From: Candidatus Nanosyncoccus sp.
GTDB taxonomy: Bacteria > Patescibacteriota > Saccharimonadia > Saccharimonadales > Saccharimonadaceae
Direction: 5' to 3'
Length of the DNA stretch: 64,000 nucleotides
NCBI GenBank assembly: GCA_045536725.1
Contig: JAZSOC010000034.1
Location: 17,228 to 81,227, forward strand
Positions 5,271-64,000 of the stretch are shown piece after piece. Both the position numbers and the translations under genes were made by a program. The notes under the pieces are model-generated. The model worked only from the letters and a program-made list of their open reading frames with translations, was not told the DNA's origin and ran no database searches. The stretch's first letter is position 1. Each line of letters starts with the position of its first letter.

Positions 5271-5817
5271 TTTTCTTTGTCAGCCAAAACTTAGTTAGCT
5301 CCCTAGTAAAGAAAGCATTCTTAATTGGATCTTTAGCATTCTCATCTATAAATTTATCAAAATCTTTCAGTTTCACCCATTTTACTGCACTCACTTCACC
5401 ATCATCAAAGGAAAAATCATCTCCTTTCCCTGTCCAGTCACAAAGATAATGATAAGCATACATTTGTACTTCAAAGAATGTTTTCAACTTAAACATAAAC
5501 TCTAAATCTTCCGCTTTTGCGCGTGCGCCAATCTCTTCAAAAAGCTCCCGTACGGCCGCATCTACCGTACGTTCGCCATTGTTAATATGCCCCCCAGCGG
5601 AAACATCCCACTTTCCACCATGCCTAACCTGCGGCGCGCGCTGCTGAAATAATACTTCTATACCTTCATTCGTATAACGATATAACCACACAGCTGCTGC
5701 TGCCACATAAGCATCACTCTCACCATTAAGAGGGCCACCTAATGCAGCATCGTAGCCATCCGTATCCACACGTTCACCCTCCATATCATATACTTGCCAC
5801 TTTTCATCCGTGTGCAT
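5251..5817 (-). CDS. NUDIX hydrolase
   Basis: Nudix box GGHINNGERTVDAAVRELFEEIG. The start shares a TAATG overlap with the recA stop. Confidence 0.8.
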   Translation of the reverse strand: MHTDEKWQVYDMEGERVDTDGYDAALGGPLNGESDAYVAAAAVWLYRYTNEGIEVLFQQRAPQVRHGGKWDVSAGGHINNGERTVDAAVRELFEEIGARAKAEDLEFMFKLKTFFEVQMYAYHYLCDWTGKGDDFSFDDGEVSAVKWVKLKDFDKFIDENAKDPIKNAFFTRELTKFWLTKKNGNTQE

Positions 5818-6845
5818 TAAACCTCCTCTGCCGCTTTCTCGCGTACCTGTTTTTCAATTTCTTCCATTAATTCCGGCTTTTCCTTAAACAACTTTTTCAC
5901 AGCCTCACGCCCTTGCCCCAAAGTTTCGCCTTTATATTTAAGGAACGCACCAGCCTTATCAATCACGCCATACTGCACTGCAAGGTCTAAAATATCGCCA
6001 GTCTTAGAAATCCCTTCATTATACATAATGTCAAACTCTGCCGTCCTAAATGGTGCCGCAATTTTATTCTTTACCACCTTGATCTTCGTCCGGTTGCCAG
6101 AGATATTATCCCCCGCCTTAATCTGCCCAATCCGACGAATATCTAAGCGTACTGATGCATAAAACTTCAATGCGTTCCCACCAGTAGTCGTCTCCGGGTT
6201 ACCAAACATCACTCCAATCTTCATTCTAATCTGGTTAATAAAGATTACTGTTGCCTTAGACTTAGAAATGATACCTGTCAGCTTTCTCATTGCCTGAGAC
6301 ATCAAACGCGCCTGAAGGCCCATCTGCGCATCACCCATCTCACCGTCAATCTCTGCTTGCGGAACGAGCGCTGCCACTGAATCCACTACAATTAAATCTA
6401 CTGCAGATGAACGCACTAATGTTTCACAAATCTCCAGCGCCTGTTCACCATTATCTGGCTGCGAAATCAACAAATCTTCCGTCTTCACACCAATCTTCTT
6501 TGCATAGGCTGGGTCCAGTGCATGCTCCGCATCAATAAACGCTGCCTGCCCACCCTGCTTCTGAATCTCCGCAATTGCATGAAGCGCCAGAGTCGTCTTG
6601 CCAGATGATTCTGGCCCGTAAATCTCAATAATCCGACCCTTTGGATAGCCGCCGCCTAATGCCAAATCAAGCGATAAAGACCCACTTGGCAAAAGCTCTA
6701 CATCAATCTTCTTCGCCTCCCCCAGCTTCATAATGGAACCGTCTCCAAACTGTTTTGTAATCTGAGCAATCGCCAAATCTAATGCCTGGTTCTTGCCGCT
6801 ATTTGCTGTTTCTGCCATTTCTGATTTACTTGTTTTCTTTGGCAT
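5817..6845 (-). CDS. recA: Recombinase RecA
   Basis: 342 aa with Walker [10 protein letters not shown] and full-length RecA similarity. A strong SD (aaaggagg) lies upstream. Confidence 0.97.
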
Positions 6846-26830: not shown

Positions 26831-29800
26831 CTACATATTTATTTTAGTCCAGCCCGCATTCCCCACCGTTGCATCCATATTCCCTAGCACCTTACCATTC
26901 TTTGCATCCCAATATTCACCGTTAGCATTTTTCAAATAAATCTCACCTTTATTATTTGTGTATGCCTCCGTCGCGTTAAATCCGCTCTTTTCATAACCAT
27001 TCAGTACTCCAGACTGCCCCGCAATATTGCCACCATTAGCAAACTTTAAGGCTTTCTTTCCTGCCATCTGCGAGCTAAACTCTGCCTTCGTCGTCTTTGC
27101 GTCCTTATGCTCAACCTTATTCCCCTCCATGTCTCGCACATCATTACTTGGGTTCATTGCCGCAACCTGTTCAAGTACAGGTCTCTTCCCGGCATCTGAA
27201 GCAATGCCAGTCTTCACTGCTGGAGGAGCATTCTCGCTTACCATTGCATTTGCCATCTGCGAAGTGAACTTCCCATCCACAGTATCACGCTTGAGAGCTG
27301 TAGTATTCTGCGTCATACGATCATCCATCGTCTGATCTGAGCCAAATGCAGCATCGTTAATATTCTTATATTCACCAGCCTTATTCATACCTCTAGAATT
27401 CGCAAATTCAAAAGCTGTTTTATCTCTTCTCTTTAGCTGCTGCGCAAACTTGTCATTATTTGACATATAGCTTTGAATTTTTGCCAGTTTCGCCTGGTTA
27501 CTGAGTGCATTTGCGGTATATTTCCCATCGGCATCCTTCTCTTCTATATTAAAGCTTGCATCAGAAAGCATTGATGAAATATAATCAGCCGTACCCTTCA
27601 TGTCTTGTGACGCCGCCCTCTCCATTGCTATATCAAAATCGCCTTTACCATCTAGCGCCTCAGATACTCTCCCATTCAAAACGGAATTTGGCTGCCATTC
27701 ATCCGCTATTCTATCAAGATACGCTCCAGCCACACGGTCTTTCTGTTGCGTCTCTTCCCAAGCTTGATTCTGCCGTGCCAACTGCCGCCTAAATCCAGTT
27801 CTCTTTCCAAACTTAGTATTTGCTATTTTATTTCGCCAGCTAGTACCCTTCGTCGCCTGTAATTGCTGATGCGTCTTATAAGCATCACTCCCTTTCACTG
27901 CCTTTATACCCTTATCGGTCGCCTTCTGACCAAAGCCTCTAATCTTATCACCAATACCATTAATGGCTTTTAGCGACCCACTCACTAATGGAATAATAAA
28001 GAAGTACGGAGCGCATAGTAATAATAGCCCAACCAATTGGAAGATAAAACTCCCAGAATCCACCAGCAATATAATCCTCGCTGCAAAGTAGAACCCACCA
28101 ATTAATAGCCCTACTGCCGGATATACCAGTAATAAATTAATAAACAACTTGCTCCATTTTTGGAAAAGTTTATTGGTATTTGGCAGTATATAAAGCACAA
28201 ATGCGATCGGTGATGTCACCACCAAAAGCAATATAGCTGCCTGCCTCACGCCTAATATTACAAACCCAAAGAATACTGCTACCAGCCCTGACAGTATCGT
28301 CAATAATAGTGGCAATACCCACAACATACCAGTCAAAACCGTCGCCACCGCCCCAGAAGTTATCGCTAAAATTATTACTTCTATCGCACCACCTACAGTC
28401 GTGAAAGTCCCACCAGCACTACCACCTTTCACCCCTCCAGATACTACTACATTTTTCACCTGATCATTAGCCAGCCCTATCAACAAATCTTTCAGTCCCG
28501 CCCCAAAGATGTTTGAAAGATCCACCGCCAATTGGCAAATTAAGAATGAAAAGTTCACTAGTACTGCTGTTACAATCAACCTTGGTAAAGCTCTTTTAAT
28601 CCCGTAATTATCTATCCCCACACCAGTAAGCTGGGAAAATATCACGACCAAGAACATTATAATAAAGACTATATTCGCAATATTCCTAAATAGCGACCAA
28701 GCTCCATACACCCCATTATTCCCATCCACTGCCAAAGAGCTAAGTATCCCAGAATTAGTTTGTAGTAGTGGCTCTATATACTTACCATAAATACTCGAGA
28801 GTGCATCACTCGCCGCTTTAATTACTGGGCAAACAAACCACCCCAATGCACCAGATGCCGTATAACATGGATCACTCTCCGCCTTTTCCCCCTCCTCATC
28901 ACTTTTACTAGATGTCGTTCCATCTGGTCCCATCAGTACATCATCGTCTGGACTCAATTTAAACATTGCCTCAATCACGTCCTTAAATGTCATTGCTTTA
29001 TCTAGGACATATCCAGACCCACCTTCACTAAATCCAGACACTTTCAGATTAGCATAGTTACTATCTACGGACACAGTACACCAACCATCAGTTGTTTTTA
29101 TCCAATATTTTGTAGAGCCACCACTCGTCTCCACTGCACTACTTGGTTTATTTTTTTGGCACTGCTCAGCTCTATCGGATTGTGTTGTCTTATATACGTC
29201 AGCCAAATAATATCCATATAGCTCATATTTCTCATTATCACTAAATTTGCTTCTCTCGGCCCCAGATAAGTACTTAGCAAAAACTTTATATGCACTCGAA
29301 AAAGTCCCTCTCCGTTTTTCAGTTTCTTTTACACTGTATTCATTACTTAGCTGTGTACTGTCACTCTTCTCGTTATAGCTGCCCTTGAATACCACATCTC
29401 CGCCATCTCGCACATTGGAAATCACACACTGTATCGCGTCATAGTTTTTAAATGCCTCGACGCTAGAAACGTCATATTTTCCGTTTTTATTCGGCACCGC
29501 AGTCTGTGCAAATGAACAATCTCCGTATTTATCATCATGTGCAACCAGTTGCCCCAGGCCGCCCATCCATATCTTTTTAGAGTCACTACTCTTTGCCGCA
29601 TATGCCAGCTCTATCGGACTATCAAACCCATTCTTTAAATCTACTTCATTCCAACAGATATTGCCAACTTTAGACCAACTATCCCCTTCTCTACCAGTGC
29701 CAGTCGTTATATCGACACAATACTTCTTATTATTTGTCGTCGAGGTGCCACTCGCCTCCGTATAGCCTATATTCTTTACAAAATTTACGATTTCCGTCTT

Positions 29801-30211
29801 TGAAGTGCTGCCATTTACAACTGCGGTCTTACCATAAGCCTCAAACACCCCTTTCATACTCCCACCGTATGTACCGACACCAGTCTTATCTCCTAAGAAT
29901 ATCTCATAACAACCCACCTTTGGTACCCCACCTGAAGTATCATCAATCGTATTCCCCACCTTTGACGGTAAAAAGATATTGGTCGATGATTTCTTCTTCG
30001 CCTTCAATATACTCTTAGCAAACGTATCATAATCATCAACATTCACCGATGAAACAAGATTAGAGCTATTATAACAATCATACGCCGAATTTAAGATAGC
30101 CTTTTTATATAGACCGTTCTTCGTTGCATAAGTTTTATTCACTGGAACAACCGCAAAAACAGCAGCGAATAATACAATCAGACCTAATTTCTTCATTTTA
30201 TTCACTGCCAC
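26831..30211 (-). CDS. Large polytopic membrane protein (VirB6/TrbL/TcpH-like topology, speculative)
   Basis: 1126 aa with a signal peptide and an extracellular domain of about 450 aa. About 8 hydrophobic helices span aa 500-760, followed by a hydrophilic C-terminal domain of about 370 aa. Confidence 0.5.
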   Translation of the reverse strand: MAVNKMKKLGLIVLFAAVFAVVPVNKTYATKNGLYKKAILNSAYDCYNSSNLVSSVNVDDYDTFAKSILKAKKKSSTNIFLPSKVGNTIDDTSGGVPKVGCYEIFLGDKTGVGTYGGSMKGVFEAYGKTAVVNGSTSKTEIVNFVKNIGYTEASGTSTTNNKKYCVDITTGTGREGDSWSKVGNICWNEVDLKNGFDSPIELAYAAKSSDSKKIWMGGLGQLVAHDDKYGDCSFAQTAVPNKNGKYDVSSVEAFKNYDAIQCVISNVRDGGDVVFKGSYNEKSDSTQLSNEYSVKETEKRRGTFSSAYKVFAKYLSGAERSKFSDNEKYELYGYYLADVYKTTQSDRAEQCQKNKPSSAVETSGGSTKYWIKTTDGWCTVSVDSNYANLKVSGFSEGGSGYVLDKAMTFKDVIEAMFKLSPDDDVLMGPDGTTSSKSDEEGEKAESDPCYTASGALGWFVCPVIKAASDALSSIYGKYIEPLLQTNSGILSSLAVDGNNGVYGAWSLFRNIANIVFIIMFLVVIFSQLTGVGIDNYGIKRALPRLIVTAVLVNFSFLICQLAVDLSNIFGAGLKDLLIGLANDQVKNVVVSGGVKGGSAGGTFTTVGGAIEVIILAITSGAVATVLTGMLWVLPLLLTILSGLVAVFFGFVILGVRQAAILLLVVTSPIAFVLYILPNTNKLFQKWSKLFINLLLVYPAVGLLIGGFYFAARIILLVDSGSFIFQLVGLLLLCAPYFFIIPLVSGSLKAINGIGDKIRGFGQKATDKGIKAVKGSDAYKTHQQLQATKGTSWRNKIANTKFGKRTGFRRQLARQNQAWEETQQKDRVAGAYLDRIADEWQPNSVLNGRVSEALDGKGDFDIAMERAASQDMKGTADYISSMLSDASFNIEEKDADGKYTANALSNQAKLAKIQSYMSNNDKFAQQLKRRDKTAFEFANSRGMNKAGEYKNINDAAFGSDQTMDDRMTQNTTALKRDTVDGKFTSQMANAMVSENAPPAVKTGIASDAGKRPVLEQVAAMNPSNDVRDMEGNKVEHKDAKTTKAEFSSQMAGKKALKFANGGNIAGQSGVLNGYEKSGFNATEAYTNNKGEIYLKNANGEYWDAKNGKVLGNMDATVGNAGWTKINM

Positions 30212-32080: not shown

Positions 32081-34519
32081 TTATAACACGCCCCAATTGT
32101 TTCCGCTAGTCACTTCCACGTTAAAGCTTATCGGAAGTTCCGGTGCAATTCCCTCCATCGTCTTTCGCAAAATCTCCGAGACCTCTTCACGCAATTCAGT
32201 CTCACATTCCACTATCAACGAATCGTGCACCTGCAGAATCAATTCCGCCCCCTCCGGCAACAACTTATCCACCTTAATCATCGCCCGCTTCATCAAATCA
32301 GCCTCCGTCCCCTGAATTGGCATATTCTGCGCCGCTCTTTCTGCACCCATTCTAATCATATAATTCGACGATTTCACATCTGGCGTCGGTCTCCTCCGTC
32401 CATAAAATGTCGCCACATATCCCTCATTTCGCGCCTGTGCCAATGTGTCATCAAGATACTTTCTTATTGCCTTTCGCACTTCAAAGTAATGGTCAATAAA
32501 TTCCTTCGCCTCCACCACATTCATCCCAGCCGCTTCCGCGAGACCCTTCGCGCTCATTCCGTACAACACTCCAAAGTTAATCACTTTCGCCGCGCGCCGC
32601 TGTCTCTTCGTCACCTCACTCATCGGCACACCAAATACTTCCGAAGCCGTCTTCGTATGTACATCTACTCCCGAATTAAAGGTCTCCGTCAGACCATCAT
32701 CCCCAGAAAGCACCGCCGCAAGTCGCAGTTCAAACTGTGAATAATCCGCCGATACAAAGCATCTCCCCTCCGGCGCAATGAATCCTTCCCTTATCCTCTT
32801 CCCTGCCTCCGTTCGTACTGGAATATTTTGTAAATTCGGATTTAAGCTTGATAATCTTCCCGTCGCCGTTACATTCTGCGTAAAAGTCGTATGTATCCTC
32901 GATTCTTTATCCACCATGTCTGTCAATGGTAAAATATAAGTTGACAATAACTTCGCCACTTCCCGATATTCTAGGATTTTCGGAATTATCGGATGCTCAT
33001 CCTTCAATTTTTCTAGCTCTTTCGCTCCAGTAGAATAACCTCTCGACGTCTTTTTTATTCCCTTCACCGGCAAGCCCATCTTCTCAAACAGTATTTCCGA
33101 TAGCTGCATCGGCGAATTGATATTAAAGGCCACACCCGCCAATTCATTAATTTCCTGCACTAGCTCATTAATTTTTACTTCATACTCTTCTTTTAGTTTC
33201 CCAAAATATTCCTTATCTAGCTTTATCCCCCACTTTTCCATTTTATAAAGCACTGGAATCAGTGGTAAATCATACTCCGTAAAAATCCTATATAGCTGCT
33301 CATTTTTCTCAAATAACTTTTTCTGTCGCCAATATTCCCTCTTTTTATCAATTACTTCATCTTCATTCCTTCGCACCAAAGGATCTAATAAGAATCTCCC
33401 CTGCTCTAAATCCCAGAATTTTTCACCTGCCAGAATCCTTTTTGCTAACCTTTCATCTTCATGCATCTTCTTTTTTATATTAAAATCAATAATCACATCC
33501 TCTGGCAAATCTTCCGCTTCCTCTACTTCTTCTTCCTCCGCTTCATCCATATGACCTAATATTTCTCGCTCAAATCTTTTTACCAAAGACCTAAACTCTA
33601 ATTTATTTAATTCCCTTAGGACTCTTTTTCCATCAATTACAAAATCTGGTATCTCATTTATTGTTACCGGCGCATCCGTCATAATCTTTGCTAAACTCTT
33701 AGACATATATGCCAGCTCTTTCCCCGCCTCTAATCTCTTTGCCATACCGGGCGCTATCTCACCCAAATTTGCATAAATTCCGTCTAGATCACCGTATTTT
33801 TCCAGCAACTTCGCCGCACCCTTCTCGCCAATCCCCGGCACACCTGGAATATTATCTGAACTATCCCCCTTCAGCGCTTTTAGATCCAAGAATTGCTCTT
33901 TCTTAATGCCGTACTTTTCTTCCACTGCCGCCACATCCATTTTCTGTATATCAGAAAAACCTCTCATCACTCGGTACATTACCACATTATCATTCACCAC
34001 CTGCAGCATATCAAGATCCGACGATATAATTACCATAGACCAGGGTTGCGCATTAGTGGCAGAATTATGCGAGGAAGCGGGAGTAGCGGAAGGAGCCGTA
34101 TTTGGCATACGGCGACTGAGCAACGCATCCGCTGACGAAGCAGAATCCGCCACCTGATGCGCAAGCGTACCAATGATGTCATCGGCCTCATACCCATCGC
34201 ACTCCAAAAACCCCCACGAAAGCGCTGCTATTAGTTCCTTCAATAACGGTATCTGCGCGTAAAAATCCTCTGGCGGCTTCACTCGCCCAGCCTTATATTC
34301 CGGATAGATTGCTAATCTCTTCTCAGTCGATGTTCCCGCCTTATCCCACGCCACCACTACTTTGTCCGGCTTCAGCCTCCGCACAATTTCCATCGCAATC
34401 ACTGCAAATCCATACACCCCACTCGTCGACTGCCCATCTTTTGTCGAAAGTGTCCCCATCGCATAATATCCTCGATAGAAAACACTTTTACCGTCTATCA
34501 CCACCAGCTTCTTCATCAC
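32081..34519 (-). CDS. polA: DNA polymerase I
   Basis: 812 aa with a 5'-nuclease domain (YEADDIIGTLA, SSDLDMLQ) and polymerase motifs (DYSQFELR, RRAAKVINFGVLYGMS, QVHDSL). It contains the in-frame repeat at 34046-34164. Confidence 0.95.
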   Translation of the reverse strand: MMKKLVVIDGKSVFYRGYYAMGTLSTKDGQSTSGVYGFAVIAMEIVRRLKPDKVVVAWDKAGTSTEKRLAIYPEYKAGRVKPPEDFYAQIPLLKELIAALSWGFLECDGYEADDIIGTLAHQVADSASSADALLSRRMPNTAPSATPASSHNSATNAQPWSMVIISSDLDMLQVVNDNVVMYRVMRGFSDIQKMDVAAVEEKYGIKKEQFLDLKALKGDSSDNIPGVPGIGEKGAAKLLEKYGDLDGIYANLGEIAPGMAKRLEAGKELAYMSKSLAKIMTDAPVTINEIPDFVIDGKRVLRELNKLEFRSLVKRFEREILGHMDEAEEEEVEEAEDLPEDVIIDFNIKKKMHEDERLAKRILAGEKFWDLEQGRFLLDPLVRRNEDEVIDKKREYWRQKKLFEKNEQLYRIFTEYDLPLIPVLYKMEKWGIKLDKEYFGKLKEEYEVKINELVQEINELAGVAFNINSPMQLSEILFEKMGLPVKGIKKTSRGYSTGAKELEKLKDEHPIIPKILEYREVAKLLSTYILPLTDMVDKESRIHTTFTQNVTATGRLSSLNPNLQNIPVRTEAGKRIREGFIAPEGRCFVSADYSQFELRLAAVLSGDDGLTETFNSGVDVHTKTASEVFGVPMSEVTKRQRRAAKVINFGVLYGMSAKGLAEAAGMNVVEAKEFIDHYFEVRKAIRKYLDDTLAQARNEGYVATFYGRRRPTPDVKSSNYMIRMGAERAAQNMPIQGTEADLMKRAMIKVDKLLPEGAELILQVHDSLIVECETELREEVSEILRKTMEGIAPELPISFNVEVTSGNNWGVL
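34046..34164 (-). repeat. In-frame palindromic insertion element, copy 1 (inside polA)
   Basis: Terminal inverted arms ttgcgcattagtggc and gccacctgatgcgcaa, and a central hairpin at 34095-34113. The 70-nt core (34071-34140) is 57/70 identical to 44459-44528. It encodes SSADALLSRRMPNTAPSATPASS. Confidence 0.8.
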
Positions 34520-42775: not shown

Positions 42776-43750
42776 TTACCCCTCTAGGAGTTTACATACT
42801 AGCGCTACAATCAGCTCCTTTTCCTCTGGCTCACTCTCAGCAATCAATAATGCTATCGCCGTCAATGCCCTATCAGATATTTTCGTCTGTCCATCTTTCG
42901 TCAAATGAAAATCATTCATTGTCAAATAGATAATAAATAGTAGCGCCCCAATCCGCTTGTTCCCATCATAAAACGGGTGATCTTTAATCACAAAATACAG
43001 CAAATTCGCAGATTTCTCCGCTACTGTTTTATACAGTTCTTCCCCGTCAAAGCTCTGATTTATCCCCTGTAAAATTCCATAGAAACTCTCATCCCGCATT
43101 TTACCAAACAGCTCCCCCGCCGAAAGACTCAGCCTTAGCTCCGCAATAAATTGCTCACAATCATCCGCACTTAAAATTTTCCGCGCCTTCCGACCTCTAC
43201 TTAATACGATATGCCCTTCATCATACTCTTTCAGCGCTTTAAAGCTCCCCGCATAACGAGAAATCACCTCTAGTACTCCGTTAGCTTCTCCCGCCGACAG
43301 CTCATTTCTCTGAATTAATCGCTGCACCACCCCCATCATCTGTTCCACGTCTTTTAGTCTCTTCTCCGGTAGCTCTTTCAGGCGTCGCTCATTCACTGCC
43401 ACCCCACCTACAATATACCGTTTCAAAGTCCTCGTCGCCCAAATCCGGAAATCCGTCGCCTTCCGCGAGTTCACCCGGTATCCCACCGAAATAATCGCAT
43501 CGAGGTTATACATCTTCACTTGGTAGGTTTTACCATCCGCGGCAGTATGTGCATTTTTTGCACATACTGAACTTTCTATTAATTCTCCCTCTTTAAAAAT
43601 ATTCCTTAAGTGGCGCCCAATTACTGTTCTATCCACTCCAAACAATTCTGATATCTGCGCCTGCGTTGCCCAAATCGTTTCTTCTTTCTTATCGACATCA
43701 AAAATTACTTCTCCATTCGCCCCCTGATATATCTCTATATCCTTATTCAT
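42776..43750 (-). CDS. RhuM-like N-domain fused to a Fic/Doc domain
   Basis: The N-terminus (WATQAQISELFGVDRTVIGRHLRNIF...ISVGYRVNSRKATDFRIWAT) is RhuM-type. The C-terminus carries HPFYDGNKRIGA (Doc-type HxFxDGNKR). Confidence 0.75.
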   Translation of the reverse strand: MNKDIEIYQGANGEVIFDVDKKEETIWATQAQISELFGVDRTVIGRHLRNIFKEGELIESSVCAKNAHTAADGKTYQVKMYNLDAIISVGYRVNSRKATDFRIWATRTLKRYIVGGVAVNERRLKELPEKRLKDVEQMMGVVQRLIQRNELSAGEANGVLEVISRYAGSFKALKEYDEGHIVLSRGRKARKILSADDCEQFIAELRLSLSAGELFGKMRDESFYGILQGINQSFDGEELYKTVAEKSANLLYFVIKDHPFYDGNKRIGALLFIIYLTMNDFHLTKDGQTKISDRALTAIALLIAESEPEEKELIVALVCKLLEG

Positions 43751-43803: not shown

Positions 43804-45570
43804 CTAGCGAAGCGCCTTCATGAAGTGATAAAATAGTGGGTGCACTGCCATTGGCCTAGAGCGAAATTCTGGATGCGCCTGTGTCGCCACAAAGAATTTG
43901 CAATCTGGCGCCTCCACAAATTCCACTAGCTTTCCATCTGGCGAAAGCCCTGACACTTTCACTCCACCTTTCTCAATCTCTGGCAAAAACTTCTGGTTCA
44001 CCTCATAGCGATGCCGGTGCCTCTCCACCACATTAACATCACCATTTTTCACTGGCTTTATCCCCGCAGTAAAACACTCATCATCAAATTCTTTCTGATA
44101 AATCTTTGCGGTCTTTGTCCCCTTCTTGAGCACTGCCGGATAATCACCCAGTCGCATCGTCCCACCAGTAGACTCTTTCCCCTTTTGTCCTTCCATGATA
44201 TATATTACATTATTGCCATCTTTCTCGCTCGCACCAAACTCTTCCGAGTTTGCCTTCTTTACTCCACCCTTTCTCGCTGCTGCGACACAGGCCATTTGCA
44301 TCCCTAAACATAACCCCAAATACGGCACATCATTTTCTAGTGCATAAGTTGCCGCAGCAATCTTCCCCTCTGCGCCTCTCGCACCAAATCCTCCCGGCAC
44401 CACAATCCCATCCACTTCTCTAAGCATTTTCAACGCTTGCTCAGGGGGCGTCAGCTTCGAGGAGGCAGGAGTAGCGGACCGAGCCGTACTAGACGTACGG
44501 CGAGAGAGCAACACACCTGCTGACGAAGAAGATGACGCTGCCTGTGCAAGTGCTTCTGCGTTAATCCAAATAATTTCTAATCCCAAATTATGATGTATCG
44601 CCGCCGCCTTCAAAGCTTCTGTCACACAAATATACGTATCTGAATTCCCCACATACTTTGCCACCAACCCCACTTTTACTTTCTTTTTGTGTTCTTTCTT
44701 CTGCATCTTTGAGAACTTCTCCCAAGCCGTCATATCTGGCACTTTCTTATCGCCCATAAACTTGTTCAGGATATTCAGCACCCCAGAATTTAACACGTTA
44801 AACGGCACGTCATACACACTCTCGATATCTGGCAAATTCACTACTGCGTCACCAGAAATCCCGGCAAAAGCTGCAATTTTTTCACAAATCTCCCGGCCCG
44901 CCGGCTTCTCTGTCCGCACAAACACCATATCTGGTACAATCCCAAAACCACGCAAATCCTTCAAAGCATTCTGAGCCGGCTTCGTCTTTAACTCATGTGA
45001 AGCATTCAGCCACGGCACAAATACTACACTTGCATACATACAGTTCTCTCTTCCCACTCTGTTTGCAAACAATCTAATTGCCTCCACAAAAGCTAAACCT
45101 TCATAGTCACCAATTGTCCCACCCAGCTCCACAATATGCACATCAGACCCTTCCGATGCCTTCTCAATCTTCTCCTGTACCAACCCCGTAAAATGTGGAA
45201 CTAGCTGCACAGTCTTCCCGTGGAATCCCCCAGCACGCTCTTTCTCAATCAATTCTCGGTTAATTGCCCCAGAGAGAGTAATAGAATATTTATTGGTTTC
45301 TATATCCAAAAATCTCTCATAGTGCCCAAGGTCTAAATCTGTTTCCACTCCATCATGCGTCACAAAACATTCCCCATGCTCCACCGGATTTAAAAGTCCC
45401 GCATCCACATTTAGATACGGATCACATTTTTGGATAGAAACCTTATACCCCTTTGCTTTTAAAATCGCACCAATACTTGCTGCTGTAATTCCTTTTCCCA
45501 CCCCAGACAATACCCCTCCAGTCACAAAGATATATTTACAGGGCACAGTTCTCTCCTTTCGCCCACTCAC
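43804..45570 (-). CDS. pyrG: CTP synthase
   Basis: 588 aa with KYIFVTGGVLSGVGKG and the GATase domain LGLCLGMQ ... HRHRYEVN. It has a GTG start with an aaagagg SD and contains the in-frame repeat at 44436-44550. Confidence 0.95.
   Translation of the reverse strand: MSGRKERTVPCKYIFVTGGVLSGVGKGITAASIGAILKAKGYKVSIQKCDPYLNVDAGLLNPVEHGECFVTHDGVETDLDLGHYERFLDIETNKYSITLSGAINRELIEKERAGGFHGKTVQLVPHFTGLVQEKIEKASEGSDVHIVELGGTIGDYEGLAFVEAIRLFANRVGRENCMYASVVFVPWLNASHELKTKPAQNALKDLRGFGIVPDMVFVRTEKPAGREICEKIAAFAGISGDAVVNLPDIESVYDVPFNVLNSGVLNILNKFMGDKKVPDMTAWEKFSKMQKKEHKKKVKVGLVAKYVGNSDTYICVTEALKAAAIHHNLGLEIIWINAEALAQAASSSSSAGVLLSRRTSSTARSATPASSKLTPPEQALKMLREVDGIVVPGGFGARGAEGKIAAATYALENDVPYLGLCLGMQMACVAAARKGGVKKANSEEFGASEKDGNNVIYIMEGQKGKESTGGTMRLGDYPAVLKKGTKTAKIYQKEFDDECFTAGIKPVKNGDVNVVERHRHRYEVNQKFLPEIEKGGVKVSGLSPDGKLVEFVEAPDCKFFVATQAHPEFRSRPMAVHPLFYHFMKALR
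44436..44550 (-). repeat. In-frame palindromic insertion element, copy 2 (inside pyrG)
   Basis: The arm cttgctcagggggcgtcagcttc matches the reverse complement of gaagaagatgacgctgcctgtgcaag. The central hairpin is gccgtac-tagac-gtacggc (44483-44501). It encodes SSSAGVLLSRRTSSTARSATPASS. Confidence 0.8.
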
Positions 45571-59724: not shown

Positions 59725-60102
59725 CTATACCAGCGCCAGCTTCTCTCTAATCTCTTCCATCTCTTCAGGAGTTAACTTCACCTCGCGCCCATGCGTCCAG
59801 GTCTCATCATACGGCATCAGATGAATATGCGCATGTGGCACATCCGTCCCAATCACTTTCCAGAGCGTCCTCGTCCCCAGCACCTTCTCCATATTCACCG
59901 ACAACTTCTTCGCCGTCTGTAGTAGCGCTACATAATCTTCCTCTGGCAATTCATAAATTTTATCGCATTCTAGCTTTGGAATCACCAGCGTATGCCCAGC
60001 CGTCTCCGGATGAATATCTAAGAACGCAAAAGTCTTCTCGTCCTCATAAATTTTATAGCAAGGGATCTCACCCTTAATAATCTTCGTAAAAATACTCGCC
60101 AT
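59725..60102 (-). CDS. HIT family (HinT-like) hydrolase
   Basis: IFTKIIKGEIP N-terminus and the histidine triad HAHIHLMP. The ATG at 60102 has an aaggag SD. The ORF-track GTG start is at 60108. Confidence 0.85.
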   Translation of the reverse strand: MASIFTKIIKGEIPCYKIYEDEKTFAFLDIHPETAGHTLVIPKLECDKIYELPEEDYVALLQTAKKLSVNMEKVLGTRTLWKVIGTDVPHAHIHLMPYDETWTHGREVKLTPEEMEEIREKLALV

Positions 60103-60434
60103 ATTCACTCCTTTCCTCCATTATATCATTTACTGAGTAATTCCTATATGAGTAGTCAGAAGACAATGTCCTCACTGCACGCAAGCTATAAGTATAGGTA
60201 TAGTCAGCGCACTCCATATTAATAGACACAGGCTGATCATCTGCACCGTAAGAAATCGCCGAGCCTTCATCAGGTAATAGCTCAAATTAACACCTTCCAA
60301 CCTTTCTTCGTAGATGAAGTAGGCATAGCAGGAGCAATATTTTCCCTCACGTTCGCACGAAAAGCCGCTTCATAGTTATCACCTTCACCCATACCTATAT
60401 TTACTTTTATTTTTCAAGTGAAAGGCCAGTAACT

Positions 60435-60463
60435 TAGCAAAAGCACCTGAACAAAGTTCGAAC
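60435..60463 (-). repeat. Degenerate tRNA 3'-end-like fragment G
   Basis: tagcaaaagcacctgaacaaagttcgaac aligns with fragment C (gtgcctggacgaagttcgaaac), about 17/22 over the T-arm-like part. Confidence 0.4.
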
Positions 60464-60559
60464 TATAGCCTTACAAAACCCCGAACGCCATCTCAGAAAC
60501 GAAGCCCTCATGGAACACGTATACCTTAGTACGAGAGCTTTTCGTGCTACAATGAACTT

Positions 60560-61237
60560 ATGGACAGATTAAAAAAAGCGCGGGAACTGAGTAGTAAGAT
60601 TCTAGAAAGCGATGGCTCTGGCCACGGAATAGATCACACTAACAGGGTCATAAAATTATCTTTAAAATTCGCTAAGGAAGAATCAGCTAATTCCGAAATT
60701 GTATCTTTAATAGCCCTACTGCATGATATGGATGATTATAAATTGTTCGGCACGGAATTTGCTGAAAATCTCACTAACGCCAGAAAAATTCTAGATGATT
60801 GCGGTTTTGATGAAGCGACAAAGGAACAAGTTACCCAAGCTATTAAAGCCATCGGCTATAGTAAAAGACTGCAAGGTATATATCCTGCCACAATTGAAGG
60901 TAAAATTGTGTCAGATGCCGATATGTGCGACGGCATGGGAGCCACTGGCATACTCCGTAGTTTCCAATACCAGATAGCTCATCATGGCGCCTTCTTTGAT
61001 CGAAATACTTATCCAAATTTAGACATGTCAGCGACTGAGTACAAAACTAAAAGTGATGGTACATCCGTCAACCATATCTTTGAAAAAATCTTAAGGCTAA
61101 AAGATTTAATGCTAACAGAGTCTGGTCGAAAAGAGGCTATAAAAAGACACGATTTTGTGGTTGACTTTCTCTATCATTTCTTTGAAGAAGAAAACACCCC
61201 AGAATGGATTGAATACCTAGAAAACTACCTAAAATAA
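60560..61237 (+). CDS. HD-domain phosphohydrolase
   Basis: It carries HGIDHTNRV and LLHDMDD motifs. The promoter is leaderless: TGCTACAAT at 60545-60553, 6 nt, then ATG. Confidence 0.65.
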   Translation: MDRLKKARELSSKILESDGSGHGIDHTNRVIKLSLKFAKEESANSEIVSLIALLHDMDDYKLFGTEFAENLTNARKILDDCGFDEATKEQVTQAIKAIGYSKRLQGIYPATIEGKIVSDADMCDGMGATGILRSFQYQIAHHGAFFDRNTYPNLDMSATEYKTKSDGTSVNHIFEKILRLKDLMLTESGRKEAIKRHDFVVDFLYHFFEEENTPEWIEYLENYLK

Positions 61238-61246
61238 ACCTTATCC

Positions 61247-61272
61247 TGGCGGAAGCGAAGGGATTCGCCTCC
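61247..61272 (-). repeat. tRNA-Ser(GGA) 3'-end-like fragment D
   Basis: Compare tggcggaagcgaagggattcgcctcc with the genuine tggcggaagcgagaggattcgaacctcc. Confidence 0.6.
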
Positions 61273-61377
61273 AAATATATCATTAAATATATCATTTTTC
61301 TAAACTAATACATACTTAATAAACAAAAAGCAAATCGCGACATGTGCGTGACTTGTTTTTCATACTAGTTTCTTTTT

Positions 61378-61415
61378 CGTTTGGACTTTTTCTTTTTAAA
61401 GAAAAAACCCAGTCG
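61378..61415. repeat. Hairpin family member H4 (short form)
   Basis: Arms cgtttggactttttcttt and aaagaaaaaacccagtcg. The right arm is homologous to 47470-47488 (agaaaaaacgcccagttgg). Confidence 0.5.
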
Positions 61416-61417
61416 TT

Positions 61418-61447
61418 TGGCGGAAATGTCTGGACGAATTTTGAACC
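61418..61447 (-). repeat. tRNA 3'-end-like fragment E
   Basis: tggcggaaatgtctggacgaattttgaacc aligns with fragments C and F. Confidence 0.6.
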
Positions 61448-61539
61448 AAATTACAGGATGTTTATATTTACAAAACGTAAGAAATATGCTATTATAAAAA
61501 TAGACCGTACCCTGTCATATTCAAAGGAGGTGAATACCT

Positions 61540-62118
61540 ATGGCAGTAACACAGAAAGTTGACGATCAGTTCTTTTTATTTACACGAATGATACTTGATT
61601 TCTGCGGATATCAATATACAAAAAGTGGCGAAATTACCCCAAGACAGCCCGCTAGCACTAGTTATGGCGACGTACACGGTGGGAACTGGCTTCCGTACAC
61701 ATTTCCAAGAGACAAGAACGCGTGCATTCAAATAATGTACGAAGAGGGAAACAACTATATCATCGCCCATCAAGATAAGCACTCCATATTTTTTGTCCAA
61801 GACGAGCTTATGAAAAGGGCTACCGACGCATGGTATATGGAGTTCCCAATTCTCAATTTTCACTATGAGCCTGGGGCTGAATCGTGGTTCTTCTGGAGAA
61901 GGCACGCCATGATTGGAAAGATTAACAAAAGCAAGCTTCGAGTATACCGCATATCTGATGATATCATAAATTTAGCAACAAATCTTGATGCTGAGCAACG
62001 CTTGTCGGTTGAAAATATGACCAAAGTTCTTGATTCTACAACCGATAAACCTCTTTCCGCACAAGAGTTAGAAGAAGAAATACCGGAAATCGTTAACTTC
62101 TTCCAACCGGGATATTGA
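61540..62118 (+). CDS. Hypothetical protein (AT-rich cassette gene)
   Basis: 192-aa ORF with SD aaggagg upstream and a terminator at 62133-62163. I recognised no motif. Confidence 0.5.
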   Translation: MAVTQKVDDQFFLFTRMILDFCGYQYTKSGEITPRQPASTSYGDVHGGNWLPYTFPRDKNACIQIMYEEGNNYIIAHQDKHSIFFVQDELMKRATDAWYMEFPILNFHYEPGAESWFFWRRHAMIGKINKSKLRVYRISDDIINLATNLDAEQRLSVENMTKVLDSTTDKPLSAQELEEEIPEIVNFFQPGY

Positions 62119-62132
62119 GCTGAGTTACATTA

Positions 62133-62163
62133 AAAAGAGCGGTCAATATGGCTGCTCTTTTTC
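62133..62163 (+). terminator. Rho-independent terminator
   Basis: Stem aaaagagc, a 13-nt loop, stem gctctttt, followed by a T-run. Confidence 0.55.
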
Positions 62164-62239
62164 CACATTCTTCTTAGCAGGGATAAAACTATATTAAAAA
62201 ACTTGTATCTTTTTCCTTGGCGTTTTATCTTTATCAAAA

Positions 62240-62269
62240 TGGCGGAAGCGTCTGGACGGAGTTCGAACC
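62240..62269 (-). repeat. tRNA 3'-end-like fragment F
   Basis: tggcggaagcgtctggacggagttcgaacc. The first 11 nt are identical to the tRNA-Ser(GGA) 3' end, then it follows the C/E-type sequence. Confidence 0.6.
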
Positions 62270-62288
62270 TTAATGCTAAAATAAGATT

Positions 62289-63323
62289 ATGAATAAATTT
62301 ACTGGAAGCTATGCTGAGTTTGGCGAATATCTCGCCAAAAAACTTGCGGAAAGAAACCACGATTTTGATACTCGCGTGAACAAGCGAACCCTAAATAAAC
62401 AACTCAAAATCTACAAAAAGTATTGGCCAGAACTTTTGGAAGAATCCAAAGCCGTTGCTCATTTTCTAAATATGCCCGAGGATGAGATTCTCTACGACGA
62501 AATTGCATCTACCATTGATAACCAAAAACGCCACGTCAAAAATGCTCACGACTCAAAGACTGACGCCTGCACAATTTTTGCTATTAAGGAAAATGGCAAA
62601 ACTTTTGTCGGTCGCAATTATGATTGGGACCCTTCGGCACGTAATTATTTTCAAAATTATGATTTAAAAATTGGCAATTCTTATCGTTATTTCGCTTTTT
62701 CTGATGAAGGAACTTACCCTCGTCATTACGGTCGTCGTACCTGGAAACTTTACATGGAAGATGCCATCAATGAACACGGGCTTTACATTGGTCTCACCGC
62801 TTCAAAACTACGTGAAAAATATTGGAATTATGGTTTTTCATCTTATCATATCATTCGTTATATTGCCGAACACTGCAAAACCACCAAAGAGGCATTAGCT
62901 ATCTTCCGCAAAATTCCTGTTGCTGTACCAAAAAACTTCTTAATTGCAGATAAATCTGGTGACATTGCCGTTATTGAACACGCCGCAAAAGATTACCGAA
63001 TTTTGCGCCCCAAAATTTTTGCCGACGCTGGATATATCATCCATACTAATCACTGTTTGTCGCCAGAATACAAAAAAGTTGACCCCATCCTCGAAAGCAA
63101 TCCACAGGCAAACACTTATCTTCGTTATGAAGAAGCCGACTATCTAATTCGCCAAGAACTACCAAACTACGATTTTACAGATACCGGCCGCATCCTCAGA
63201 AACTCTCACTATATCTATAGCGAAGACACTATTTGGTCACTTGCATTAGAACTTTCTGAACTTCATCTGACGTATTATCGTGATACCGCCGAAGGTCAAA
63301 AAGAACAAAAGTTATCCTTCTAG
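62289..63323 (+). CDS. Ntn-hydrolase (peptidase C45 / choloylglycine hydrolase-like)
   Basis: 344 aa. DACTIFAIKENGKTFVGRNYDWD fits a nucleophile Cys after a propeptide of about 90 aa. The promoter is leaderless: TGCTAAAAT at 62274-62282, 6 nt, then ATG. Confidence 0.5.
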   Translation: MNKFTGSYAEFGEYLAKKLAERNHDFDTRVNKRTLNKQLKIYKKYWPELLEESKAVAHFLNMPEDEILYDEIASTIDNQKRHVKNAHDSKTDACTIFAIKENGKTFVGRNYDWDPSARNYFQNYDLKIGNSYRYFAFSDEGTYPRHYGRRTWKLYMEDAINEHGLYIGLTASKLREKYWNYGFSSYHIIRYIAEHCKTTKEALAIFRKIPVAVPKNFLIADKSGDIAVIEHAAKDYRILRPKIFADAGYIIHTNHCLSPEYKKVDPILESNPQANTYLRYEEADYLIRQELPNYDFTDTGRILRNSHYIYSEDTIWSLALELSELHLTYYRDTAEGQKEQKLSF

Positions 63324-63408
63324 TGGCATAGTATCCCATATTATTATTCATCAACAAAAATAGAAGAATAAACTATCCATTTTTAATACCATAAAAAGGT
63401 AGTTTATC

Positions 63409-63723
63409 TTAATAGTTTGTTATTAAAACTTCTCTAGTTTCATTTTTATCTCTGTGTTTTGCATGATAACTTGAATTTGCGTAATTTTTGTCTATACTGT
63501 GTAAATTATACCCGCCTTTATCTATCCATTCTAAAAGTAAATCATTTTTTACTCCTTTATGGTAAGTTCCGTTTGATAGAGCAAATTTGATATACCTGCT
63601 ATCCAAATCATCTAAAATATCAAGAAGTTTCCTCCCATATATTTCGTTCCAACCTGTAAATCCTCTTTTATTGTAGACAAACCTGTAATTTATGATAAAA
63701 TACAAAAAGAACAATTCGTACAT
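63409..63723 (-). pseudogene. C-terminal remnant of a Dam-type (D12 class) N6-adenine DNA methyltransferase
   Basis: The 104-aa ORF ends ...KFALSN...RDKNETREVLITNY, typical of Dam C-termini. The DPPY region is degenerate and the SAM-binding N-half is missing. Confidence 0.5.
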
Positions 63724-63749
63724 TAAGTTTTTGTTAGGAGGTGATTAAT

Positions 63750-64000
63750 GTGTATCCAGCGATCAATACTAAAAACCAAGGATTTGATTTTTGCGGAATA
63801 GATCTCAGTGGCCCAAAGGCCATTCCACAGGCGCCAAATCCTGAATTTGATGATTACAATGCAAGCATTAGAGAAATCGTGATGGATTATCTAGAATACG
63901 ATTCAAATTCATATCCACATGACGACGTAGCATTAGCATTGAGATATGACTGCGAATTTGGTATCCATATTATTCTTTTTTCTAAAGTAATTAATCTATC
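63750..64000 (+). CDS. Hypothetical protein, 5' part (runs off the window)
   Basis: A GTG start lies 8 nt after aggagg, and the frame is open for 83 codons to the window end. It is absent from the ORF track because no stop lies in the window. Confidence 0.35.
   Translation, partial: MYPAINTKNQGFDFCGIDLSGPKAIPQAPNPEFDDYNASIREIVMDYLEYDSNSYPHDDVALALRYDCEFGIHIILFSKVINL

Follow-up and report, generated by a model that had tools for sequence, protein, structure and literature searches.

Rickettsia palindromic elements (RPEs) and the intragenic repetitive extragenic palindromes (REPs) of the GTAG/CGTC type, found in genes for DNA polymerase I, tRNA synthetases, and repair proteins, are translated in-frame with the genes that contain them and often have no known transposase (PMC10969869, PMC3733652). 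Intragenic REPs have also been reported in Proteobacteria and Opitutus (PMC3733652). [quoted passage not shown] Here, we analyze an in-frame palindromic element in pyrG (CTP synthase) and polA (DNA polymerase I) of Candidatus Nanosyncoccus sp., located in 64,000 nucleotides of contig JAZSOC010000034.1 (assembly GCA_045536725.1; hereafter, the window), together with copies of this element in other genomes. We consider it probable that the copies form a family of short, nonautonomous, hairpin-forming repeats of the RPE, intragenic REP, or MITE kind, limited, within the sampled range, to a ruminant-gut clade of Candidatus Saccharibacteria. The family is new; its kind is already known, and the phylum is new for that kind. 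For Saccharibacteria or Patescibacteria, the literature searched yielded no account of palindromic repeats lying in-frame.

Like RPEs, and RPE-1 in particular, the element is a palindromic repeat of ~100 to 150 bp that occurs both in intergenic positions and in-frame within housekeeping genes unrelated to each other, encodes a conserved peptide compatible with protein function, has no known transposase, and occurs in a host-dependent bacterium with a reduced genome (PMC10969869, PMC3733652). Its copies are dispersed, keep one orientation and frame within genes (with one flipped exception), and are predicted to occupy a loop of the protein. Unlike RPEs, the element belongs to Candidatus Saccharibacteria (Patescibacteria, or candidate phyla radiation), and three of its features are absent from the accounts of RPEs (PMC10969869, PMC3733652): copy-specific outer arms that pair with codons of the host flank, a copy flipped in situ, and conservation of the core far above that of saturated synonymous sites. 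This likeness is one of described features and not of compared sequences; the taxa are unrelated, and homology is not expected.

Intragenic REPs share with the element an in-frame position inside genes for DNA polymerase I, tRNA synthetases, and repair, and their CGTC class has no dedicated transposase (PMC3733652). However, REP units are 20 to 40 bp long, with 5- to 13-bp stems and a tag at one end, and their dimers encode 20 to 30 amino acids (PMC3733652), whereas the Saccharibacteria element is a single hairpin of ~120 nt with CGTC/GTAG tags inside internal loops. The element therefore departs from REPs and from the REPIN-RAYT system in unit size, architecture, and end tag, and no RAYT was seen in the window. 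Long-hairpin MITEs (Correia/NEMIS, ERIC, RUP, BOX) are similar to it in size. Per genome, such MITEs number in the dozens, and their hairpins in mRNA are targets of RNase III or RNase E. MITEs have conserved terminal inverted repeats, target-site duplications, and an origin in insertion sequences, whereas the termini of the Saccharibacteria element are its least conserved part and show no target-site duplication (see below). Neither the 64-kb window nor the annotated loci yielded a parent insertion sequence or a transposase that shares the ends of the element.

Two copies of the element in the window

The initial annotation of the window reported that unrelated genes, pyrG and polA, contain the same palindromic element, and this holds. 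Positions 44459 to 44528 and 34071 to 34140 are identical at 57 of 70 nucleotides in an ungapped alignment; the next-best 70-mer on either strand of the window reaches 36 of 70, against a background mean of 16 to 18 (standard deviation 3.7), and blastn returns the match between the two copies with E = 1.5e-12. Both encoded peptides contain LLSRR and SATPASS, as described. The two compensatory substitutions that had been pointed out are also present: gccgtaT/Atacggc in polA is matched by gccgtaC/Gtacggc in pyrG in the central stem, and gcGgg/tcCgc by gcAgg/ccTgc in the outer stem. The outer arms of the pyrG copy are indeed inverted repeats (44436 to 44458 versus 44528 to 44550, 83% complementary), and those of the polA copy differ from them in sequence (34046 to 34070 versus 34140 to 34164, 72% complementary). 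Each copy folds as a single long hairpin, with z = -4.0 to -7.8 relative to dinucleotide shuffles. The sense orientation of the element is that of the pyrG coding strand. Searches with nhmmer --max and a covariance model found no third copy in the window.

The insert had been estimated to add about 33 residues to PyrG. We found that residues 345 to 381 (37 residues) lie opposite 4 residues of the Thermus thermophilus CTP synthetase 1vco, which agrees with that estimate. In an AlphaFold2 model of PyrG, the core-encoded residues 348 to 370 have a predicted local distance difference test (pLDDT) score of <50 and lie between two helices, and the parts encoded by the outer arms form short helices (338 to 347 and 375 to 385). 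The position of the insert is thus predicted to be compatible with the fold, as a disordered loop.

Family size, taxonomic range, and host genes

Homologues of PyrG and PolA assign the window to Candidatus Saccharibacteria. An exact-sequence query with PyrG of the window had no match. Among 120 PyrG homologues, approximately 20 have a recognizable insert at the same site, a few from other lineages have a decayed one (P0003, P0025, P0027, P0059), and the rest have short linkers of 9 or 15 amino acids. We searched 185,579 species genomes for copies using a 21-nt degenerate pattern from the core. The pattern matched 28 loci, of which 20 were in Saccharibacteria metagenome-assembled genomes (MAGs) from roe deer, sheep, or goat guts or related coassemblies; the other 8, in other phyla, were chance matches in which similarity stops at the edges of the pattern. 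A scan of JGI metagenomes produced two true copies and seven other loci that were chance matches. Further copies came from contigs fetched through the PyrG homologues. In total, we identified at least 34 copies in about 20 ruminant-gut Saccharibacteria MAGs and the two metagenome contigs (L numbers below denote the loci that we compared).

The genic copies occupy at least nine gene sites across seven gene families: pyrG (two sites), polA, argS (two sites), ileS, a murE-like Mur ligase gene, tsaD, and a histidine kinase gene, where the copy sits in the C-terminal tail. Approximately 8 to 10 copies are intergenic or in 5' leaders, and one (L020:2943-3048) fills the spacer upstream of polA. All sense genic copies share one phase, encoding a Ser/Ala/Thr/Pro/Arg-rich peptide with the consensus ~SSASADALLTRRTSSTARSATPASLN, and other frames are often open (s2 in 26 of 32 copies, a1 in 18 of 32). 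When the two insert peptides of the window were used as queries in a word-indexed protein search, nothing was returned, which probably reflects the limit of the word index, since PyrG proteins that carry the insert are in the collection. A profile of the peptide found only 15 weak matches, mostly to short ORFs, among 1.84 billion representatives.

Given nine extra copies over approximately 22 loci of ~8 kb each, and two copies in the 64 kb of the window, these densities suggest, as a rough figure, some tens of copies per genome. In L032 to L034, close relatives of the window, ~46 kb contain no copy, and pyrG, argS, and tsaD are uninterrupted.

Two side observations concern variants of the family. 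A diverged second subfamily (...LRASNSPR[NT]SS...) occurs in tsaD and a murE-like ORF of L011 (including L011:5676-5783) and in PyrG homologue P0086, from another lineage; it retains the apical stem-loop, and its inner helices differ. In addition, L003:4458-6326 encodes a 622-amino-acid PyrG with two copies of the element at two sites; the second site, in the glutaminase domain after AARRG, is common to L003 and L027.

Hairpin structure and covariation

Each copy consists of a conserved 78-nt core, in which a stem-loop at the apex is joined by two helices that covary and by internal loops that are conserved, and of outer arms of ~20 nt that are copy-specific and complementary to each other. 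We aligned 31 copies over 106 columns without gaps, which means that no structure guided the alignment. From this alignment, RNAalifold predicted one hairpin of 31 pairs, 22 of which have changes on both sides. Paired cells amounted to 94.9%, compared to 74.0 ± 0.9% when the 3' partners were shuffled and 32 to 46% when they were slid by one to three columns. Cells with double changes numbered 192, compared to 55 ± 6 in the shuffles; none of 500 shuffles equaled the observed number, and none matched the observed values on four of five covariation measures. The preservation of pairing that had been proposed from two copies is thus borne out in the larger set by strong covariation.

The changes nearly all replace one Watson-Crick pair by a different one and include transversion flips (CG to GC, UA to AU); pairs 47/63, 48/62, and 52/58 show CG, AU, GC, and UA alternatives. 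One-sided cells number only about 20, compared to the 192 two-sided cells, and G-U intermediates are nearly absent. Template switching during replication makes, extends, and repairs stems, and in a DNA quasi-palindrome it can produce compensatory changes in one step, with no need for selection to act pair by pair (PMC8794818). The scarcity of G-U intermediates fits this process.

In the internal loops, the positions T[GT]CGTC, GATGCGTTGCTC, and TCCGCTAC are near-invariant, and the apical loop varies. CGTC is near-invariant at columns 22 to 25 of the core, with GTAG on the opposite strand at columns 73 to 76. The length of the hairpin, measured on the fold of the antisense strand, has a mode of ~120 nt (17 of 32 copies at 118 to 123 nt) and a median of 123 nt, which may mean that the formation of the arms is either coupled to insertion or under a constraint of its own. 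No Rfam 15 family covers the element at either the gathering or the E-value threshold: the best match over it is v-snoRNA-1, with 15 bits against a cutoff of 75, and the only matches in the window are tRNAs.

Strand and orientation

The strand antisense to the host gene folds better in 32 of 32 copies (-59.5 versus -49.4 kcal/mol). This difference arises from three or four positions that in most copies are G.T on the antisense strand and A.C on the sense strand; because the G.T positions are inherited, 32 of 32 counts as one observation. Of 31 copies, 25 retain the A.C/G.T positions, which have not been perfected. As to which strand better supports the structure, a point raised by the initial annotation, the antisense strand folds better by ~10 kcal/mol, a single inherited observation that does not identify the active strand.

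In 33 of 34 copies, including all nine intergenic copies scored, the sense strand coincides with whichever strand is G-rich in the flanks. Because the G-rich strand is the coding strand in these genomes, replication and transcription are inseparable as sources of this orientation. The plus strand of the window has a strong, uniform GC skew (-0.17 to -0.45 per 2 kb over positions 1 to 60000), and most genes are on the minus strand; positions 60001 to 64000, with 36 to 39% GC and hardly any skew, may be a segment that was acquired.

One copy, at pyrG site 1 of L020, is inverted relative to its gene. It is read in antisense frame a1, with an alignment score of 62 compared to ≤28 in the other frames. 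In L001, the nearest relative of L020, a core of that subtype lies in sense orientation, an arrangement that indicates a flip in place at pyrG site 1. The 5.8-kb L020 locus contains three copies of the element.

Conservation of the core and distribution of the copies

Cores at orthologous sites in different genomes are 0.74 to 0.92 identical (mean 0.84), compared to 0.15 to 0.55 for the host four-fold sites of the same genomes, which are saturated. Third-position identity is 0.43 to 0.53 within 20 host codons of the element versus 0.62 to 0.84 inside it. The core is therefore an island of nucleotide conservation, far above neutral host sites. Co-converted flanks, which are expected under homing by recombination, were not found: the host flanks are not raised in similarity. 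We also considered concerted evolution within genomes, which is ruled out by mean identities of 0.79 for copies at different sites of the same genome, 0.84 for copies at the same site, and 0.80 for all other pairs.

Presence of the element is patchy on the PyrG tree. The nearest PyrG relatives of the window, L032 and L034 (0.91 identity), are insert-less and have the widespread 9-amino-acid linker type, whereas the more distant L003 (0.87 PyrG identity) contains the insert, and its arms are of the type seen in the window. Core subtypes are not tied to one site: the B type is present in argS of L007 as well as at site 1 of pyrG in L001 and L020. Both vertical descent with loss and recurrent gain or allele exchange may be compatible with this pattern.

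Our preferred reading, a dispersed family of nonautonomous hairpin repeats, would work as follows. Copies would spread by a mechanism acting in trans, as their distribution suggests. Those landing in other frames or orientations would be lost, since they would disrupt the protein, and the translated insert would be tolerated as a putatively disordered loop. Compensatory changes, and the pairing of arms into flanking host codons, would arise at least partly by template switching within the palindrome during replication, one arm being copied from the other. Pairing would thus be maintained by constraint on the hairpin, by template switching, or by the two together. Conservation of the core would reflect either purifying selection on the hairpin, as the substrate of a mobilizing or binding factor or in a host-level role, or continual renewal by reinsertion, by gene conversion from master copies, or by exchange of short patches or alleles.

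Several observations weigh against this reading. The closest copies at different sites are 97% identical and come from different genomes; there is no near-identical pair and therefore no sign of very recent transposition. Orthologous copies are undecayed, unlike what would be expected of a purely selfish relic, with decayed versions in other lineages. The tight modal length of the hairpin would not obviously result from gradual random extension of a palindrome. Columns 69 to 89 of the core are the search pattern and are thus partly conserved by ascertainment. In the window, we found no transposase, nuclease, or autonomous partner (Pfam searches on ten unidentified ORFs, with the rest read by eye). 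A target-site duplication was likewise not found when direct repeats of 3 to 6 nt were sought at all boundary pairs, the best result being 4 of 32 copies. The loci contain no clean pair of empty and filled alleles, and it is the distribution of copies that points to mobility.

One alternative, which we regard as possible though not likely, is that the element is an exapted functional hairpin, a protein-binding or processing site held by purifying selection inside essential genes. Its site of action could be mRNA, where it might serve as a stability element or one of the RNase III type, or ssDNA (single-stranded DNA) at the replication fork, where it might be a substrate of an HUH/RAYT-like or other hairpin-binding enzyme. 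The 84% identity of orthologous cores beside saturated four-fold sites, near-invariant internal loops around a varying apical loop, the nearly uniform orientation on the G-rich strand (intergenic copies included), the retained A.C/G.T positions, and the modal length all speak for it. However, the element has no Rfam match, the close lineages L032 to L034 do without it, its presence is patchy and decayed copies exist, and one copy works flipped; in addition, the strong skew of these genomes means that the effects of orientation and of gene direction cannot be told apart. A more elaborate proposal, which we hold to be doubtful, is that the core is a nucleic-acid module under purifying selection at fixed sites in essential genes of an ultra-reduced episymbiont, read by a hairpin-specific ssDNA or RNA factor, recruiting host codons into its stem ("palindrome creep"), and able to flip in place. 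If that were true, upkeep of the hairpin would dictate amino acid changes, such as R to H in Pol I and Y to W in ArgRS.

Recurrent entry is another tentative possibility: copies that only seem conserved would be young, having arrived repeatedly at a small number of shared sites in different lineages, by site-specific insertion or by horizontal exchange of alleles or short patches bearing the insert, for example through transformation and recombination or through targeting of short quasi-palindromes. The absence of the insert from L032 and L034 and its presence in L003 would be explained, as would the crossing of the B-type core between pyrG and argS and the occurrence of both orientations at pyrG site 1. 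Filled polA alleles read CGTCAGGCAGACG at the site, a short quasi-palindrome; however, the empty polA sites of other lineages are not palindromic. Recent arrival also conflicts with the unraised similarity of the host flanks beside the element and with the divergence of the copies, which are ~20% apart and so not recent. Orthologous copies, moreover, have arm types in common and resemble each other slightly more than nonorthologous ones do (0.84 versus 0.80).

Outer arms and insertion sites

Beyond the core, the outer stem extends for 14 to 26 bp, and its sequence differs between copies. The duplex of cognate arms has a mean energy of -25.9 kcal/mol, compared to -11.1 ± 5.2 kcal/mol for noncognate arms, and in 25 of 32 copies no other arm pairs better than the cognate one. 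The inner ~10 nt of the arms show a family resemblance (...CAGYGGMT / AAKCCTRCTG...), the termini CTTGCTCAG...CTGAGCAAG are common to only a subset of copies, and the outer part follows local composition, with an arm GC content of 0.52 in genes and 0.35 between genes. Stems also take in host-conserved codons, those of GTLA in polA (the arm of the window copy extends into the Leu-Ala codons, CTTGCG) and of TLWAL in argS (TGGGCACTT). In both genes, the partner arm takes the place of nonhomologous host residues. The right flank in polA stays at host length, as seen in ADEAGDWET (empty), ADAPGKWEV (L019), and ATNAQPWSM (window), and the polA host codons R(CGT)/D(GAC) switch jointly to H(CAT)/D(GAT).

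Template-switch mutation and quasi-palindrome correction (PMC8794818, PMC5453318) account for multi-base compensation without G-U intermediates, for stem extension, and for inverted segments, all of which are expected products of in-register template switching in a quasi-palindrome (PMC8794818). Template switching is, however, a mutational process and not an element, and it leaves the dispersed core and its spread to new sites unexplained.

The arms could instead be older than the insertion, the element having entered the loops of short palindromes or terminators that were already there. IS1397, which inserts into REPs, is a model for such a history. The arms do match local base composition, several intergenic copies (L014, L022, L028) are flanked by A-runs and T-runs in the manner of terminators, and in pyrG the codons for EEL...ELL are reverse complements by nature. 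Nevertheless, we consider pre-existing target hairpins improbable: the empty sites of insert-less pyrG, argS, and polA orthologues contain no 20-bp palindrome, and in polA and argS a conserved host motif makes up one arm, while its partner stands in for nonhomologous host residues without a change of length. The net size of the insert is ~81 to 126 nt depending on the empty allele with which it is compared, and the exact boundary between insert and host is not fixed.

As a separate matter, the ArgRS loop after GGDVGLHVAKTLY (L010 argS, ~5700-6000; also L003 and L007) is a hot spot of length expansion, with 17 to >100 residues. The 3' arm region in the argS gene of L010 is tandemly duplicated (NNNHSEQSDE ... 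DNNHSKQSSE), and ArgRS of L003 has an unrelated Gly/Pro-rich insert in the same loop.

Constraint on nucleic acid rather than peptide

In genic copies, the three codon positions are equally variable, with entropies of 0.43, 0.41, and 0.44 bits. Identity to the consensus is 0.875 for genic and 0.864 for intergenic copies; outside the columns of the search pattern, the values are 0.848 and 0.835. Pair 52/58 illustrates how pairing shapes the peptide: when it is C-G or T-A, the peptide reads ...RRTSST... or ...RRMSNT..., and T..S covaries with M..N only because the codons of these residues pair. The initial annotation had attributed the preserved pairing to a hairpin and not to the peptide, and this attribution is upheld by the equal variability of codon positions, by the equal conservation of intergenic and genic copies, and by the copy inverted into an antisense frame. 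What is constrained, in pairing and in core sequence alike, is the nucleic acid and not the protein.

We therefore give very little credence to the idea that the insert is a protein-level feature, such as a low-complexity linker or a short linear motif (e.g., RRxS), with an incidental palindrome. The peptide is hydrophilic, predicted to be disordered, always in one frame, and has an RRxS-like motif, all of which would suit a linker. However, the idea is contradicted by third positions that show no excess of change, by intergenic copies that are equally conserved, and by the flipped copy, whose peptide at that site is unrelated; the covariation of residues in step with the pairing of their codons and the few profile matches among the 1.84 billion representatives also count against it. 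Finally, a recent gene-conversion patch between polA and pyrG, suggested by the presence of only two copies in the window, is ruled out by the 34 or more copies in about 20 genomes, and these come from independent assemblies, several studies and animals, and many genes, which leaves an assembly artifact with a negligible chance as well.

With these results, a class best known from Rickettsia now includes the candidate phyla radiation, where the genome concerned is once more reduced and host-dependent. They explain length variation in many Saccharibacteria housekeeping proteins (for PyrG alone, from 546 to 622 amino acids), which bears on annotation, phylogenomic alignments, and structure prediction. 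The element is also an unusually clean case in which pairing at the DNA level overrides protein evolution, as seen in the covarying residues, the recruited host codons, and the different peptide of the flipped copy. The ~84% identity of the core across lineages with saturated synonymous sites makes it a testable question whether such an element is kept up by a function, by a dedicated enzyme, or by constant renewal.

Feature coordinates and neighboring genes

Table 1. Host genes, parts of the element, and the inverted copy. Positions are those of the window unless preceded by a locus number.
Feature	Position	Strand	Basis or context
Host gene pyrG (CTP synthase)	43804-45570	-	ORF; insert at the start of the glutaminase domain, with the WINAE strand before it and DGIVVPGGFG after it
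Host gene polA (DNA polymerase I)	32081-34519	-	ORF
pyrG copy, whole hairpin (~119 nt)	44434-44552	-	Inverted arms; folds of both strands; covariance model match of 89 bits
pyrG copy, conserved core (78 nt; columns 15-92 of alignment A4), encoding SSSSSAGVLLSRRTSSTARSATPASS	44455-44532	-	Ungapped 31-copy alignment; covariation
pyrG copy, apical stem-loop GCCGTAC-TAGAC-GTACGGC	44483-44501	strand-neutral	Covarying stem; variable loop
pyrG copy, 5' outer arm (gene sense), copy-specific, encoding EALAQAA	44533-44552	-	Arm duplex energies; AlphaFold2 helix 338-347
pyrG copy, 3' outer arm (gene sense), complementary to the 5' arm, encoding KLTPPEQA	44434-44454	-	Inverted repeat; arm duplex energies; fold
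polA sister copy	34046-34164 (core 34067-34144)	-	5'-nuclease domain, directly after conserved GTLA
Flipped copy, pyrG site 1 of L020 (pyrG on the - strand)	L020:1105-1210	inverted relative to the gene	Translated as MRCDEGGATERNALKVRRASSASPEEA

Directly downstream of pyrG in the window is a RhuM/Fic-type gene (42776-43750, minus strand), which has the same position in the insert-less L032 and L034. A 1,126-amino-acid ORF (26831-30211, minus strand) matches no Pfam family at E ≤ 0.01. The H+-pyrophosphatase is encoded by two ORFs (307 and 418 amino acids) in L001:7186-9392 and by one (732 amino acids) in L002:4722-6920; the L001 and L002 contigs are near-identical and come from different samples, and the split may be a frameshift or an assembly difference. 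In several Saccharibacteria contigs, polA is split into 5'-nuclease and polymerase ORFs (L044, L045; e.g., 452 amino acids with a downstream DNA_pol_A ORF), unlike the polA gene of the window, which is a single ORF of 812 amino acids.

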